Shown here in pieces: positions 1,649 to 14,635 of a stretch of 64,000 bases of DNA. The stretch comes from a candidate division WOR-3 bacterium (GTDB taxonomy: Bacteria > Hydrothermota > 32-111): the NCBI GenBank assembly GCA_037481815.1, contig JBBFKX010000003.1, forward strand, positions 1 through 64,000. Reading direction: 5' to 3'. Every line of letters begins with the position of its first letter. Position 1 is the stretch's first letter. Position numbers and translations under genes: made by a program. Below the pieces are notes generated by a model. It worked only from the letters and a program-made list of their open reading frames with translations, did not search any database and was not told the DNA's origin.

Positions 1649-2495
1649 TCTTTCTCCTTAAAAAGAATTTTGAAAGTGGTTTTTCAAATCCTTCCTCGAT
1701 CATTATATGGTTGTAATCTATTCCATTTTCATAACAGATCTTTTTTATCCTTTCATTCCTTTGTTTTAAAACTTTCAACCTATCAGAAGAAGAATCAAGA
1801 AAAAGAGTTTTACCTGTTTCCATATCTTTCAAATATACATTTTCAAAATTTTTTCTTTCAAACTCTTCTTTACTCTGAAGATGAAAAACTATCGAATCGT
1901 TTTTAAAAACTTTGTATATGGAAATCGTTTTCATAATGTTTTCAAGATTCTCTCCAAAATCTGTTATAAAAATAACAAAAGTTGATTTTTTTACTTTTGG
2001 TAAAATTCCCTGTAAAACTTTTGCACCTTCTGTTTCTCCCTCTGGTTTTATCTTTTCAAGATCTTGGTAGATCTGAAAAATAAGGTTTTGCTTTTTTGAT
2101 GGTTTATGAAAAATTCTTATCCTGTCATTATAGAGCGAATAACCAAAAGAATCGTTCTGTCTTTTTGAAATCAAAGCGAAAACAAAAAGTAATGTTTTTC
2201 CATATTCGAATTTGTTTGAAAATTGCATGGATTTTGAAGAATCAAGAAACACATGAATATCGGTATCCGACTCACCTTCATTTTCTCTTACAAAAAGTTT
2301 TTCACTCCTTAAAAAAACTTTCCAGTCAATCTTTTTAAAATCATCACCCTGAATATATTCTCTGTACTCAGAAAATTCTGACGAAAATCCTTTGTATGGA
2401 GTTTTATGGATACCTGAAAAATATCCTTTTAAAATATATTTTGATCTTAAAAAAAGGTTTTCAATTCTTAAAATTTCTGAAAAATTATTATTCAT
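1635..2495 (-). CDS. DUF58 family protein (vWA-like, MoxR-associated)
   Basis: G.H...KGFSSEFSEYREYIQGDDFKKIDWK, LDSSKSM MIDAS-like motif, FITDF. Confidence 0.92.
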   Translation of the reverse strand: MNNNFSEILRIENLFLRSKYILKGYFSGIHKTPYKGFSSEFSEYREYIQGDDFKKIDWKVFLRSEKLFVRENEGESDTDIHVFLDSSKSMQFSNKFEYGKTLLFVFALISKRQNDSFGYSLYNDRIRIFHKPSKKQNLIFQIYQDLEKIKPEGETEGAKVLQGILPKVKKSTFVIFITDFGENLENIMKTISIYKVFKNDSIVFHLQSKEEFERKNFENVYLKDMETGKTLFLDSSSDRLKVLKQRNERIKKICYENGIDYNHIMIEEGFEKPLSKFFLRRKSVFL

Positions 2496-4038
2496 CTATT
2501 CTGTAAATCTTTAAACTTTCATTTTGAAAAGATGTTCTGTATATAATGTGTGTTGAATCAAAAAACGATGGTTTATTGCCATAGTAAAAATAGTATGAAA
2601 TTTTATATCTTTTTAAATCTTCCAAAAGTTTATCCTTATCATTTGAGTAATAAAAAGTTCCATAATATTTTAAATTAAGATAATATGAGATGTATGTAGT
2701 GTTCTTTCTATTTAAGTTTGATGCAACATTTCCTGAGATATTCAGATTTTTCAATTCTGATGAAAGGTTGTAAACATCTTTTCCAGAGTTAAGATCAGAC
2801 TTCAACTCTTTCAAAGGCATTATCAAAAATGATAATGAAATCAAAATAAAAGATAGGATTTTTAAAAAATTTCTTATTTTAAAATTTTCTAAAACAATCA
2901 AAAAGAGGGAAGCGATTAAATAAAAATTGATAAAAATATACCTTCTTTCAATTTCAACAGGTAAATACCCAATAAAAGATATGATTGATGCAAAAAAAAT
3001 CAGAAAGAGATTTTTTCTTTTTTTCTTTTTGATAAATAGAAAGACAGATAAAATAAAAAATAAAGGTAAAAATAAAGAAAAGGATAATAAAAGTTTGAAT
3101 GTTCTCAATGTTCTCTCAGAAACGATTTTTAAATAATAATTCAAATTTTCAAATACCATTTTAACACTAACTTCTGGATGTTTTACATAAGAAGGGTCAT
3201 CCCAGAAAGATGTTGAAAGTGAATCTGGTGGGGGAAGAGGGTGTGTATAAACCTCTTTCAGTTTTAAAGTATCAATTGTCAAAGTTGTATAGTTGAACTT
3301 ACCTGTTGTTCCAACTGTTGGATAACCGTATTTTGCAGAGATAATAAAGATCCAGATTGAGGATAGAGCAATGAAAACTATTCCCGATAGGAATAAATAT
3401 TTTATTTTCCGAAAATCTCTTTTAATCAAATTGATAAAGAATAAAATTATCAAAAGACCAAGGAAGAAGAAAAAACCGTATGTTTTTGCAAGGTATGTTA
3501 AAAAACCTATAAATCCAAGTAAAATAAAGGAATATTTTTTATTGAAAAGATTTTCATCAACTAAAAATGATAATAAAAACAGGAAAAAGGTTGTAATTAT
3601 AAAATCTGATGTAATTTTTATAAGAGTAAAATGTGTTGTGACAATTGGGACAAAAAAAATCAAAAAAATTTTTTTGTAGTTTGATACAATACCAACATTT
3701 TTTAAAAATCTATCAAACAAGTATATTGAGAATAAACCTATAAAATATGATAAAATTTTAAATGAGATTACACCTTCTTTAAAAACTACCAAAAAAGGAA
3801 TAAGTAAAAAAGATATCAATGGAGACCAATAACCGTTGACAGCAAGTTTAAAATTTCCTGATAAATATTTTTTTGCGATGTTTATGAGTGAAATCCCATC
3901 GGGGTTGATCTGGTACCTAAAAAAAAGAAGAAAGTAAAAGAACAATATTGTGTACAGGATGAACGTTAACAAGAGATAATATTTTGAAATAAAATCTTTA
4001 ACTTTTTGTTTCATGATAGGATTCCTCTGCATTGACAT
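2488..4038 (-). CDS. Polytopic membrane protein, probable GT-C (ArnT/PMT-like) glycosyltransferase
   Basis: About 12 hydrophobic segments; NPDGISL...GYWSPL after TM1, YLAK, ERRY. True start may be the ATG at 4014. Confidence 0.55.
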
Positions 4039-10552: not shown

Positions 10553-11593
10553 ATGCATATAATCATTTTTACATTTTTTTTACTTTTGTGCGAAAATCTG
10601 TCCGGATATACGATTAAAAAGAGTGATCTTATACTTTATTACGATACATTGACTTTACAACAAAAGGTTTCTCAACTTTTCATAGTTTACAGAAACGATC
10701 TTAATTTTACTGAGAATACACCGGGTGGAATCATTCCATCAAGAAACCTTTTAAAAAAGATATATTATAAAAAAATTCCTGTTGATTCTTTAACAAAAAA
10801 CTTTAAAGTCCCGCCTTTGATCTGTATCGATCAGGAAGGAGGAAAGGTTGATAGATTGTCTTTCATAGAAAAAACCCCATCCTTAAATTCGATTTTTCAT
10901 GATTATGAAAGAAGAGAAATAATTATAAAAAATATGGTTTTAAACCAAAAAAGGTTAGGAGTAAATTTAAACCTTTCACCTGTCCTTGATATATCATATC
11001 AAAAAAATTCGATGATGAGAAGAACAGATCGAAATATTGTATCAACTGTCGATTCCATTCAGGAATTCATTGAATTATATATCTCTATTCACAAAAGTAT
11101 GAAAATATTGAACTGTGTAAAACTTTTTCCAGGATATGGTGAAACTTTTGATAATTCGGATGTCGTTATACCAAAATTTAAAGGTGGTAAAGAACTGTTT
11201 GATAAAAATATAGATCTGTTTTACCATTTTTTTGATAAGGTCTCATTTGTGATGCTTTCAAATCTAATTTATCCTTTCCTTGACACCCTACCCGCTATAA
11301 GATCACAAAAAATAGTAGAACTTGTTCGAGATAAGAACAAAAATATTGTTATAATTGCTGATGATATAGCATCAAAATCCAATAAAAATCCATTTTTAGT
11401 TTTAAAGGAATCTTTTAAAAGTGGAGTTGATATGTTCATTCTCATGAACGATACTCTTTTTGAATATATGGTGGATTCACTTTCTTTATGGATCTCAAAT
11501 GGAGAGGTAGAAAAAAAGGATTTTGATGAAAAACTCTTTAGAATAATGTTGAAAAAAGAGTATCTTTTTAATTTTATAAAAAACCGAAGTTAA
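10553..11593 (+). CDS. Glycoside hydrolase family 3 N-terminal domain protein (NagZ-like, altered catalytic loop)
   Basis: IDQEGGKVDR, NLSPVLD, KLFPGYG (canonical KHFPGHG), IIADD. Confidence 0.8.
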   Translation: MHIIIFTFFLLLCENLSGYTIKKSDLILYYDTLTLQQKVSQLFIVYRNDLNFTENTPGGIIPSRNLLKKIYYKKIPVDSLTKNFKVPPLICIDQEGGKVDRLSFIEKTPSLNSIFHDYERREIIIKNMVLNQKRLGVNLNLSPVLDISYQKNSMMRRTDRNIVSTVDSIQEFIELYISIHKSMKILNCVKLFPGYGETFDNSDVVIPKFKGGKELFDKNIDLFYHFFDKVSFVMLSNLIYPFLDTLPAIRSQKIVELVRDKNKNIVIIADDIASKSNKNPFLVLKESFKSGVDMFILMNDTLFEYMVDSLSLWISNGEVEKKDFDEKLFRIMLKKEYLFNFIKNRS

Positions 11594-12291
11594 ACACCAA
11601 CTATTGAAACATTGTTCACAAACTGTGTCATTATATCTCTTGCTTTTTTTAACTCTTCAGGTTTGTAAGGTTTAATCGTTTTAAAATCATCGTTTAAAGT
11701 TTTAATGTTTCTGAACTGCTGAATCACATATTTTTTCGCACCTGCTATTAAAACCCCGATCTCTCTTATATCTTCGAGTGTAACAAGTTGTGGAACCATC
11801 GTTGTTCTGAACTCATACTCGATTTTAGAATTCAACAAGATTTCAACAGAATTTTTTATCCTTTCAAAATCAATTGTTATTCCAGAAGCAACGATATATT
11901 TTGAAGGGGAGGTTTTTATGTCCATAGCAACATAATCAACAAGGTTTTTCGTTAAAACTTTTTCAAGAATTTCTGGAGTGTAACCGTTTGTATCAACCTT
12001 TACTGGAAGTTCAAATTTTTCCTTTAACTTTATTATGAAATCAACAATTTCTTCACTCATTAAGGGTTCACCACCTGTTATACTGATACCTTCAATAAAA
12101 TTTTTTCTCTCATTAAGAAGCGAAAACAATTTGTTTTCATCTATCGTCTGTATGATATCAAAATCTTTTACAAGTTCAGGATTATGACAGAAAGGGCACC
12201 TGAAATTACATCCAGCAAGAAAAATTGTGGATGAAACTTTTTCGGGAAAATCAAGTGTAGTTATCCCTTGAAAACCTTTTACAGTGACCAT
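11590..12291 (-). CDS. nrdG: Anaerobic ribonucleotide reductase activating radical SAM enzyme
   Basis: GCNFRCPFCHN, ITGGEP, DTNG, YEFRTT; lies downstream of nrdD. Confidence 0.92.
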   Translation of the reverse strand: MVTVKGFQGITTLDFPEKVSSTIFLAGCNFRCPFCHNPELVKDFDIIQTIDENKLFSLLNERKNFIEGISITGGEPLMSEEIVDFIIKLKEKFELPVKVDTNGYTPEILEKVLTKNLVDYVAMDIKTSPSKYIVASGITIDFERIKNSVEILLNSKIEYEFRTTMVPQLVTLEDIREIGVLIAGAKKYVIQQFRNIKTLNDDFKTIKPYKPEELKKARDIMTQFVNNVSIVGV

Positions 12292-12302: not shown

Positions 12303-12470
12303 TTAAAGTTTGAACTCTTTTCTGTCTTTGAACTCTTCCCTTTTACCTTCGTTCCAGTTGTTAACAGGTCTGAAATAACCAACTATTCTGCTGTAAATCT
12401 CTGTTGGAATCACTTTCACCTTTTTAACATCTTTTTCTTCACCTTTTAAAACAACTTTTACCTCTTCCAT
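12303..12470 (-). CDS. 55-aa stand-alone glycyl-radical domain of class III RNR (not in the ORF track)
   Basis: MEEVKVVLKGEEKDVKKVKVIPTEIYSRIVGYFRPVNNWNEGKREEFKDRKEFKL*; SRIVGY glycyl-radical motif; own SD (AAAAGGAGAG) inside the last nrdD codons. Confidence 0.9.
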   Translation of the reverse strand: MEEVKVVLKGEEKDVKKVKVIPTEIYSRIVGYFRPVNNWNEGKREEFKDRKEFKL

Positions 12471-14594
12471 TTACTCTCCTTTTTCGACATATATTTCAAC
12501 ACCAAATTTTTCAAGTTCTTCAGTCGTATGATCGTAAGGACAATAGTTATGCTCTCCAGGAATATATCCATGAACAGGGCATATTGAAAATGTTGGGGTT
12601 ATCGTAAAATATGGTAGATGGAAATTTTCCGCTATCTTTTTCACAAGTTTTTTACAAGCATTAGAAGAGTATATTCTTTCACCAATGAATCCATGCAAAA
12701 CAGTTCCTCCTGTATATTGACACTGGAGTTCGTCCTGCAATTTTAACGCTTCAAAAAGATCATCTGTAAAACCAACCGGAAGTTGTGTTGAGTTTGTGTA
12801 ATATGGAACATCTTTTCCTGCTGTTATGATATCCGGGAAACGTTTTTTGTCCTCTTTTGCAAGTCGATACGATGTTCCTTCAGCTGGGGATGCCTCAAGG
12901 TTATAGAGGTTCCCGGTTTCATCTGTAAATTTTTCAAGTTTTTCTCTCATAAACTTTAAAGTTTCAAGCGCAAACTCTTTTCCTTTTTCCTGACCAATAT
13001 TTTCTCCCACAAGCATTAAACACGCCTCGTTCATTCCAACAAGTCCTATAGTGGAAAAATGGTTCGCCCAATATTTTCCATTAGCTTTCTTTACCTCTTC
13101 AAGATAAACCTTAGAATATGGATAAAGGTTATCCTCTGTAAACTTTTCAAGAACTTTTCTTTTGATTTCAAGAGATTCTTTAGCTATTTCCATCATCTTT
13201 TCGAGTTTTGAGAAAAAGTCCGCTTTATTTTTACTGTTATAAGCTATTCTTGGAATGTTTATCGTTACAACACCAACAGAACCAGTCATCGGATTTGCAC
13301 CGAAAAGACCACCGCTTCTTTTTGGATGTTTTTCCTGTTTATGTTCCTGAAAAGAATCTTTATTTGAAAGTAGATTCAACTGGATCTTTTCACTCCTTCT
13401 TTTTAACTCTCTGTTGTCCAACCTCAATCTACAACACATACTCCTTGCATCTGAGGGATCCATATCGGAATTTATAAAATTACTGAAATAAGGTATACCA
13501 TATTTTGCGGTCATCTCCCATATTTTCTCAAGATTTGGATTGTCCCAATCAAAATTTTTTGTGATGTTGTATGTTGGAATCGGGAATGTAAAAATCCTTC
13601 CCTTTGCATCACCTTCCATCATGACTTCTGCAAACGCTTTGTTAAACATGTCCATCTCTTGTTGAAACTCTTTGTATGTTTCATTCATCCTTTTTCCGCC
13701 GATTATCACTCTCTCATCTTTTAATGTTTCAGGACAAACAAGATCCATCGTTACATTTGTGAAAGGCGTCTGGAATCCAACTCTTGTTGGAACATTAACA
13801 TTGAAAACAAACTCCTGCATCGCCTGTTTAACCTCTTCATATGTGAGTTCATCATATCTTATGAATGGAGCAAGATAGGTATCAAAGTTTGAAAACGCCT
13901 GTGCTCCAGCTGCTTCACCCTGCAATGTATAGAAAAAGTTAACTATCTGTCCCAGAGCGGTTCTGAAATGCTTTGCAGGTTTTGATTCTATTTTTCCTGA
14001 AACACCTCCTAAACCTTTAAGCAAAAGGAGTTCAAGATCCCATCCACAACAGTAAACGGAAAGCATACCAAGGTCGTGTATATGTAAATCTCCATCTCTA
14101 TGTGCATTTGCAACCTCTTTTGGATAGATTTTTTCAAGCCAGTATGAGGCTGAAATCGATGAAGAGATATGGTTGTTAAGCCCCTGTAAAGAGTATGACA
14201 TGTTCGAATTTTCGTTAACTCTCCAGTCTATCTTTTCAATGTATTCATCCATCAAATCGATACCATATTTTATCAACTCTTTACTCTTTCTTATCTGGTT
14301 ATGCTGCTCTCTGTAAAGTATATACGCTTTTGCTGTTTTGGCATGACCTGCTTCGATAAGCATCTTTTCAACAAGATCCTGCACATTTTCGACTGTTGGA
14401 ATTCTGCCATCTTTATACAGAACCTCAAGAACAGCAACTATCTGATTCGTTATCTTTTTCGCTGGTTCAATATCTGTTCCACCAACAGCTTTTACTGCCT
14501 TAAAAATCGCTTCAGTAATTTTGTTTTCATCAAATTTTTCCAGCCTACCATCTCTTTTTCTTATGAATTCAACCTTGGTCACCCATTCCTCCAT
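12471..14594 (-). CDS. nrdD: Class III (anaerobic) ribonucleoside-triphosphate reductase, large part, with ATP cone and without the Gly-radical tail
   Basis: ATP cone (KRDGRLEKFD), GDLHIHDL, AGAQA, FTFPIPT, RSMCCRL, YNLEASPAE, TGGTV, CPVH zinc ribbon. Likely start is the GTG at 14582 after GGAGG. Confidence 0.95.
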   Translation of the reverse strand: MEEWVTKVEFIRKRDGRLEKFDENKITEAIFKAVKAVGGTDIEPAKKITNQIVAVLEVLYKDGRIPTVENVQDLVEKMLIEAGHAKTAKAYILYREQHNQIRKSKELIKYGIDLMDEYIEKIDWRVNENSNMSYSLQGLNNHISSSISASYWLEKIYPKEVANAHRDGDLHIHDLGMLSVYCCGWDLELLLLKGLGGVSGKIESKPAKHFRTALGQIVNFFYTLQGEAAGAQAFSNFDTYLAPFIRYDELTYEEVKQAMQEFVFNVNVPTRVGFQTPFTNVTMDLVCPETLKDERVIIGGKRMNETYKEFQQEMDMFNKAFAEVMMEGDAKGRIFTFPIPTYNITKNFDWDNPNLEKIWEMTAKYGIPYFSNFINSDMDPSDARSMCCRLRLDNRELKRRSEKIQLNLLSNKDSFQEHKQEKHPKRSGGLFGANPMTGSVGVVTINIPRIAYNSKNKADFFSKLEKMMEIAKESLEIKRKVLEKFTEDNLYPYSKVYLEEVKKANGKYWANHFSTIGLVGMNEACLMLVGENIGQEKGKEFALETLKFMREKLEKFTDETGNLYNLEASPAEGTSYRLAKEDKKRFPDIITAGKDVPYYTNSTQLPVGFTDDLFEALKLQDELQCQYTGGTVLHGFIGERIYSSNACKKLVKKIAENFHLPYFTITPTFSICPVHGYIPGEHNYCPYDHTTEELEKFGVEIYVEKGE

Positions 14595-14607: not shown

Positions 14608-14635
14608 ATATTATCACTCACTTGAAAAATGTCAA
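14608..14635 (-). promoter_or_regulatory. nrdD promoter
   Basis: TTGACA-16 nt-TAATAT upstream of nrdD. Confidence 0.6.

Follow-up and report, generated by a model that had tools for sequence, protein, structure and literature searches.

The hallmark of the class III (anaerobic) ribonucleotide reductase (RNR) family is an R-x-x-G-Y glycyl-radical motif on the catalytic chain, NrdD, and in Escherichia coli NrdD the radical glycine is G681. Passages of a 2026 review (PMC13450708) state, in general terms, that oxygen cuts the polypeptide at its radical glycine, and they describe E. coli GrcA/YfiD and Y06I, a phage T4 protein, as autonomous cofactors with a glycyl radical for pyruvate formate-lyase (PFL). 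According to the same passages, such spare parts have been identified only for formate lyases, and their existence for other members is to be determined. A divided RNR is described in class II, where NrdJa and NrdJb, found in Pseudomonas aeruginosa and a subclade of this class, come from two genes, cut near the C-terminus (passages of PMC9669993; PMC4520616). Here we describe a locus from a candidate division WOR-3 bacterium, in a stretch of 64,000 nt of contig JBBFKX010000003.1 (assembly GCA_037481815.1), referred to below as the window, where an nrdD gene without a glycyl-radical motif is followed by a small gene encoding a 55-residue peptide with this motif and by the activase gene nrdG.

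All three genes lie on the minus strand, as do the other features given below. The nrdD large chain (12471..14594 including its TAA; codons 12474-14594) is an open reading frame (ORF) of 707 residues made up of an ATP-cone (residues 10-99, 14298..14567; PF03477, 82 bits, E 4.8e-23), a catalytic barrel, a zinc ribbon and an 18-residue tail, and the R-x-x-G-Y motif was not found anywhere in the 707 residues. Its finger loop, M386-C387-C388-R389 (13428..13439), recognized from the sequence and the alignment, is of the double-cysteine MCCR type. The ribbon, C672-x2-H675...C685-x3-H689 (12528..12581), is a putative zinc site located entirely on the large chain; where the family pattern is C-x2-[CH]...C-x2-C, the fourth Cys gives way here to a His placed one residue later. 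The TAA comes 18 residues past this ribbon, after a C-terminal tail (residues 690-707, TTEELEKFGVEIYVEKGE; 12474..12527) that is missing from fused relatives, and the C-terminus reads ...EKFGVEIYVEKGE / ...CPYDHTTEELEKFGVEIYVEKGE and then TAA.

This stop (12471..12473) directly abuts the ATG (12468-12470) of the peptide gene (12303..12470; 55 codons and a stop at 12303-12305). The junction on the minus strand is AGGAGAGTAAATG, and the two ORFs share one frame in this genome. A Shine-Dalgarno sequence, GGAG (12476..12479), lies within nrdD codons 706-707, 5 nt ahead of the peptide ATG. The peptide, MEEVKVVLKGEEKDVKKVKVIPTEIYSRIVGYFRPVNNWNEGKREEFKDRKEFKL, starts with MEEVK and contains EIYSRIVGYFRPVNNWNEGK; it consists of a variable Lys/Glu-rich leader (residues 1-20) and a conserved core (residues 21-55) with R28-I-V-G31-Y32, in which Gly31 (codon GGT, 12378..12380) is the predicted radical site, a role assigned from the family motif. 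The nrdG gene (11590..12291) begins 11 nt past the peptide stop and encodes a radical-SAM activase of 233 residues with C-x3-C-x2-C at residues 28-35. An earlier sequence-only reading of the window had noticed that nrdD ends soon after its zinc ribbon without R-x-x-G-Y, that the next base opens a 55-aa ORF with a Gly codon at 12378-12380 followed by nrdG, that a Shine-Dalgarno sequence is embedded in the last nrdD codons and that both parts are in frame, and all of this was borne out.

The junction was checked on Logan contigs assembled from public runs, rather than on raw reads; no RNA run was listed among the public runs that carry the locus. Contigs of X3, X4 and X6, three runs that come from as many other studies, agreed with the window letter for letter over 12468-12473, with no gap; contigs of a fourth run (X5) do not reach the junction. 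Of 41 genomes searched, the 20 relatives that matched best supplied the homologous stretches. The split was found at the same place in 18/18 loci (our own and 17 others, from 2 families and 7 genera), and two loci from more distant members of the same phylum (L018 and L020) have an ordinary fused nrdD, with a C-x2-H-x10-C-x2-C ribbon. Among the 18 split loci, nrdD ends with TAA in 8, TAG in 7 and TGA in 3; the gap between this stop and the peptide ATG is 0 nt in 6 loci, 1 nt in 8, 8 nt in 2 and 13 or 14 nt in one each, and the peptide sits in all three frames relative to nrdD. The in-frame arrangement, with a gap of 0 nt and TAA or TAG, is that of the six loci of this genus. GGAG was detected 5-8 nt ahead of the peptide ATG in every one of the 18. 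Neither a nonsense mutation nor a single recoding signal could produce a split with such a pattern of stops, gaps and frames.

The sequence-only reading had argued for an evolved split over a random nonsense mutation, and two families, three frames, three stops and a constant GGAG speak for the same. The survey of nrdD homologues that it had proposed found the split and its Shine-Dalgarno sequence kept in all 18 loci of the two families, and no sense codon in place of 12471-12473 was seen in the close relatives or in the X3, X4 and X6 contigs. Over the 32 codons of the peptide core, the 153 pairs showed a median pN of 0.084, a median pS of 0.841 and a median pN/pS of 0.108 (maximum 0.307), values that place this core under strong purifying selection. 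In the fused relatives, only four residues separate the last ribbon ligand from the E-V-Y-S-R strand, whereas here an 18-residue tail, a stop and a 23-residue leader stand in between, giving about 41 extra residues at the seam. The segment VEIYVEKGE of the tail was also considered as a possible decayed duplicate of TEIYSRIVGY in the peptide, which it resembles.

Profile searches assigned both chains to the same family. The large chain matched Pfam NRDD (PF13597) with 628 bits against a cut-off of 26.2, and its residues 128-688 cover positions 1-527 of the 562 in this profile; positions 533-562 of 562 were matched by the peptide, with 37.8 bits (cut-off 26.2). The large chain also scored 1065.8 bits against NF006126 (cut-off 548) and 545.4 bits against TIGR02487 (cut-off 326.35), and NrdG scored 205 bits against TIGR02495, the NrdG2 family (cut-off 131.15), with Pfam Radical_SAM and Fer4_12 matched as well. 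The peptide matched PF13597 alone; it did not match PF01228 (Gly_radical), and a comparison with solved structures by sequence gave no match up to E 1. The solved chains nearest to the large chain are 8p23, 9d3x, 4coi, 4u3e and 1h78. Judged by sequence, the system is a class III RNR with its own NrdG, and the sole defining feature of the family that departs is the place of the glycine, as the R-x-x-G-Y hallmark is found on the neighbouring 55-aa chain and not on the catalytic one.

Residues M386, C387, C388 and R389 are invariant across 73 aligned large chains, as are C672, P673, H675, G676, Y677, G680, C685 and P686, while H689 is conserved in at least 90% of them; G31 is invariant among 35 aligned peptides. 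Given this invariance of C672, H675 and C685 and the high conservation of H689, a four-ligand C-H-C-H zinc site wholly on the large chain is plausible. In the passages of PMC9669993 that set out the finger-loop motif classes MGCR and MCCR, a finger loop of the MCCR type, with its Met and double cysteine, has the components for formate or thioredoxin as reductant.

The genome, in 20 contigs, is 95.11% complete. PF02867 (the class I/II catalytic domain), which matches 12 of 14 control genomes, was not found in it, and no NRDD matches were detected in it beyond the large chain and the peptide; PF01228, as the PFL-type glycyl-radical domain, was not found in it either, and the control genomes match this profile. 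Thus, no RNR other than the split enzyme was found in the genome, and the peptide, of which a single gene copy tightly coupled to nrdD was found, is the only candidate substrate of NrdG found there.

For a structural prediction, residues 110-707 of the large chain (with a 73-row alignment) and the peptide (with a 35-row alignment) were co-folded together with a zinc ion. The three runs gave an ipSAE interface score of 0.77, 0.77 and 0.75, the best of three controls gave 0.00, and the mark for this score is reached by 116/157 solved complexes and by 2/215 mismatched pairs. The runs shared at least 91% of their contacts, with a peptide pLDDT of at least 72. In the predicted complex, the peptide strand 21-26 pairs with the ribbon at 668-674 and 681-685, and peptide residues 14-55 contact the large-chain tail at residues 693-694 and 697-706, as well as the barrel at residues 333-339, 365-367, 570-579, 592-613 and 632-642. 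Of the co-fold of NrdD, peptide and NrdG suggested by the sequence-only reading, the pair of NrdD and peptide, run here with zinc, passed its controls.

From the gene comparisons and the predicted complex, we consider it highly probable that an obligate two-chain class III RNR is encoded here by a single operon, made up of the nrdD large-chain gene, the peptide gene and nrdG. The two-component RNR proposed earlier is well supported by the conserved split, the purifying selection, the lack of another RNR among those found in the genome and the co-fold passing its controls. The peptide would be translated separately, from the ATG abutting the nrdD stop and behind the GGAG in the last nrdD codons, and this layout of stop, start and GGAG would couple its synthesis to that of the large chain. 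Its core (residues 21-55) would fill the place of the C-terminal glycyl-radical segment of the one-chain enzymes, with the part beyond strand 21-26 reaching into the ten-stranded barrel. The large-chain tail (690-707) and the peptide leader, from residue 14, would add interface that replaces the missing peptide bond. By the chemistry of the family, NrdG would abstract the hydrogen of Gly31, and the glycyl radical would generate a thiyl radical on a finger-loop cysteine for nucleotide reduction.

Several points weigh against this reading. The two-chain RNR is read here from gene and genome sequences and a predicted complex. The pass of the co-fold may reflect memory of solved one-chain NrdD structures, and it speaks for likeness and not for binding; the use of our own alignments and of a riding zinc ion departs from the calibration of the method, and Cys387 and Cys388 are outside the list of confident contacts, leaving the geometry of radical transfer unsupported by the prediction. 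Zinc binding by the C-H-C-H ribbon is read from conservation only. In addition, a second RNR could sit on DNA missing from the 95%-complete genome, and some readthrough of the nrdD stop is possible at the six loci of this genus, as they are in frame with a gap of 0 nt and TAA or TAG.

Taken alone, the locus looks like a one-chain nrdD with a nonsense mutation, as both parts are in one frame with a single stop between them, and the 55-aa ORF might then be the dead 3′ end of a gene broken by such a mutation or by an assembly error. This is vanishingly improbable, since contigs of three other runs show no difference at the junction, and since the split recurs in 18/18 loci with three stops, gaps of 0, 1, 8, 13 or 14 nt and three frames, always with an ATG and a GGAG of its own. 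Furthermore, purifying selection on the peptide core is strong, a search of the genome gave no other RNR, and all 120 of the nearest large chains (see below) end alike. Recoding, that is, readthrough of the stop here and frameshifting in the relatives, would instead give a normal fused chain and make the separate ORF incidental, and it is the in-frame loci of this genus that could allow it. The other 12 loci, however, would need +1 or +2 shifts over spacers of 1-14 nt that differ in sequence, and the conserved GGAG and ATG are what independent initiation requires. The extra seam residues relative to the fused relatives also stand against a normal fused product, and where the peptide gene is on another contig or unlinked to nrdD (G044 and G045; orphans in G028, G238 and G244) only a free peptide would work. 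We thus regard recoding as very unlikely.

It might also be that the peptide is only a spare part in the manner of GrcA, merely rescuing an intact, Gly-bearing NrdD after oxygen damage. Stand-alone glycyl-radical proteins are known for PFL (passages of PMC13450708), and true spares may exist for class III RNRs as well, as two loci described below (L052 and L039) have an extra ORF with a ribbon and a glycine behind a fused NrdD. The NRDD matches of the WOR-3 genome, however, are a glycine-less chain and the peptide, so that no intact enzyme to rescue was found, and the peptide gene was found in one copy, which makes such a role extremely unlikely here.

Two ideas on what the obligate two-chain enzyme could gain from its split fit the anatomy. 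A free 55-residue substrate is possibly easier for the activase to use, with no need to pull the Gly loop out of the barrel, and possibly a peptide cleaved by oxygen is replaced instead of an enzyme of 760 residues. That the peptide is a cheap, replaceable radical carrier which limits oxygen damage, as the sequence-only reading had put forward, is a good hypothesis. One reading goes further and takes the peptide as a consumable radical cartridge, and we put it forward tentatively, with more doubt than confidence. NrdG would then activate the free 55-residue peptide and not the assembled enzyme, and the charged peptide would plug into the large chain; oxygen would cleave it at Gly31, the two fragments would leave and a fresh peptide would restore activity. 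In glycyl-radical enzymes, the seam between ribbon and glycine loop would form a natural joint that evolution has repeatedly severed and restored, and lineages would tune the supply of peptide by copy number. The two or three peptide genes of some relatives, the tandem copies in Lentisphaeria and the extra ORF in Paceibacterota, all described below, would fit such a supply-and-replace logic as circumstantial evidence from outside this genome.

Within the phylum, NrdD-type matches (E up to 1.6e-10) in 272 genomes, counted by hand from the table of matches, numbered 95. Short frames, from 44 genomes, contain 58 of them and long frames, from 35 genomes, contain 35, with 2 unclear; the short-frame class includes matches behind an in-frame stop, as in G117, and the long-frame class has frames of 419-758 aa that are either fused or ended by a contig edge. 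Fifteen further loci of the 58 short-frame matches had the order large chain, peptide, radical-SAM gene in 10 cases, among them L109, whose 716-aa neighbour was untagged by the motif, and 5 were orphans. Three genomes checked from genus g17 have one large chain and two or three peptide genes each, and genus g29 has a single peptide gene on a different contig from the large chain.

The orphan peptide genes adjoin genes of sulfur/cysteine metabolism, a ferredoxin-like gene or an SPFH gene. Four of them (L102, L103, L104 and L106) are unlinked to nrdD in G028, G244 and G238, genomes with one large chain and two or three peptide genes, and their neighbours encode a Cys/Met pyridoxal-phosphate enzyme, a class V aminotransferase, rhodanese-domain proteins and a 4Fe-4S protein. 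In two other genomes (G044, contig C8, and G045, contig C67), the large chain is in a frame of 1106 aa whose NRDD match breaks at profile position 157, likely because of an intein, and the sole peptide gene (L108) adjoins an SPFH/Band 7 gene on a separate contig.

Beyond the phylum, we examined the nearest large chains in a collection of 5.8 billion proteins (63-100% identity). The glycine motif was absent in 120/120, the chains end with C-P-x-H-G...C-P-x-x-H and a tail, and their source labels include WOR-3, TA06, Spirochaetota and Firmicutes. The 150 nearest representatives of 50%-identity clusters were sorted by regular expression into 63 fused forms, 70 without the motif (including one misfiled fused form, P0338) and 17 unclear or truncated, a classification made from the protein sequence alone. 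Small peptide homologues, of 30-97 aa, numbered 164, and one of them is from a Margulisbacteria metagenome-assembled genome (MAG). Among 80 named genome loci gathered with the peptide alignment, the peptide was found beside a glycine-less large chain in TA06, Thermodesulfobacteriota, Caldimicrobium, Leptospirales and other Spirochaetota, Anaerolineae, Aquificales, Fermentibacteria, Aegiribacteria and the Lentisphaeria/Verrucomicrobia group. The isolate Thermodesulfatator autotrophicus S606 (Thermodesulfobacteriota; L033) has the split form as well. The earlier suggestion that the architecture is widespread but little characterised holds in these surveys, with 120/120 of the nearest chains and about half of the 150 clusters, and in the literature search given below.

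A tree was built with FastTree on 515 barrel columns, excluding the ATP-cone, the ribbon and the C-terminus; its rows were 140 of 163 candidates (17 unclassifiable and 6 under 70% filled were dropped), with labels assigned by us. It required 23 changes between the fused and the glycine-less state, 14 of them forced by well-supported branches, against a mean of 46.3 for shuffled labels, and the supported group that contains the WOR-3 chain numbers 7 rows, each of the C-H-C-H type. This suggests that fission or fusion was recurrent at the seam, the direction not being told by such a quick tree.

The seam itself comes in different types. A complete C-H-C-H ribbon with a tail is seen in the first, to which the WOR-3 locus belongs, and a complete C-x2-C ribbon with a tail in the second; in the third, the large chain has three ligands and the peptide begins with M-x-K-C-G, so the fourth ligand probably sits on the peptide. 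On the Lentisphaeria chromosome CP091727.1 (L077, about 2391-3020), the glycine-less NrdD ends with ...CPLEAEHKEAVNE, and three tandem identical genes, with starts at 2479, 2685 and 2891, encode 41-aa peptides that start with MAKCGEK; here too the fourth zinc ligand is probably on the peptide. Another seam was observed in a Hippea MAG (L060) and in P0024, P0049 and P0062, at which the tail (...EIESEIQRLKRQLELE...) and the peptide leader (...ILKRIEELEKAKKEIKG...) look like helices with a heptad pattern, as though the chains were joined by a coiled coil. In Aegiribacteria and Fermentibacteria MAGs (L062 and L066), the peptide ATG lies 8 nt before the end of the 707-aa large-chain frame, so that the two genes overlap, and the large-chain tail is much longer (...YIKIDRIDSETQRSLFLNIGKVSTNV).

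A different arrangement was identified in two candidate-phyla genomes, a Paceibacterota MAG (L052, 2652-2936) and L039 (2636-2914). Their fused NrdD is complete, with its own Gly, and 1-17 nt past it there is an extra ORF of 92-94 aa that brings a Cys-rich ribbon of its own plus a second glycyl-radical motif, which makes it a candidate for a genuine class III RNR spare part. Many of the nearest-cluster NrdD representatives (P0243-P0392) have lengths of 1000-1880 aa and a match broken into 2-5 stretches, which points to frequent inteins in this class III RNR branch.

Two other features of the window concern the large-chain gene. Just after the MCCR finger loop, 24/73 aligned large chains carry a charged, variable insertion of 19-35 residues, which is absent in 49/73; its carriers are the WOR-3 lineage and its nearest relatives, and here it has 27 residues (NrdD about 399-425, window 13320-13400). 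A promoter-like site, TTGACA-16 nt-TAATAT (14608..14635), lies 14 nt upstream of the nrdD ATG; it is a weak candidate, as the consensus scan returned 19 promoter-like sites in total vs 12.8 expected in shuffles. A scan by consensus only gave no terminator-like site on the minus strand between nrdD, the peptide gene and nrdG.

No description of a split class III RNR was found in a full-text literature search, which excludes subscription journals and supplements, and none is given in the passages of PMC13450708, PMC4390871, PMC9669993 and PMC9531940 that were consulted. The family-wide RNR survey presented in passages of PMC9531940 keeps only sequences of 400-1100 residues, and because of this filter it is blind to the small chain. 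Likewise, annotation can take such nrdD genes as truncated and skip the small ORF. The two-piece class III RNR is apparently common yet undescribed. With three small genes, the question of spare parts posed in the 2026 review becomes testable, and T. autotrophicus S606 offers a cultured organism with the split form that is open to experiment. The peptide may also serve as a natural minimal substrate for asking how an activase reaches a buried glycine, and a seam of apparently repeated fission or fusion could be of use for the engineering of split glycyl-radical enzymes. Were the consumable cartridge true, glycyl-radical enzymes other than PFL would gain their first spare-part or exchange system, one with a bearing on a large share of the class III RNRs.

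The closest described systems are the one-chain NrdD/NrdG pairs with solved structures (8p23, 9d3x, 4coi/4u3e and 1h78-1h7b; in passages of PMC9669993, 4u3e is from Thermotoga maritima and 1h7a from phage T4). The WOR-3 system resembles them in its ATP-cone, barrel, MCCR finger loop, ribbon, R-x-x-G-Y motif and adjacent NrdG2, and the reaction and the radical chemistry are presumably the same. Unlike in the one-chain enzymes, the glycine motif here has a 55-residue chain and a start codon to itself, the putative fourth ligand of the ribbon is a His in C-x3-H and not the last Cys of a C-x2-C, the seam is longer by about 41 residues (18 of tail and 23 of leader), and a charged insertion of 27 residues follows the finger loop. 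With NrdJa/NrdJb, as presented in passages of PMC9669993 and in PMC4520616, the locus shares a division of the RNR catalytic chain, close to its C-terminus, between two genes. The class II split, however, belongs to a B12-dependent enzyme with no glycyl radical and no activase, and NrdJb holds the zinc-finger end, whereas the ribbon of the WOR-3 enzyme stays on the large chain and the radical segment alone is split off.

GrcA/YfiD, as described in passages of PMC13450708, is similar to the WOR-3 peptide in being a small free protein with a glycyl-radical segment that completes a large enzyme and is presumably charged by an activase. GrcA belongs to the PFL branch (Pfam Gly_radical), whereas the WOR-3 peptide belongs to NRDD, and the comparison of the two is one of analogy and not of membership. 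Moreover, GrcA backs up an enzyme that bears its own Gly, while the large chain described here has none, and the peptide would be obligatory for it.

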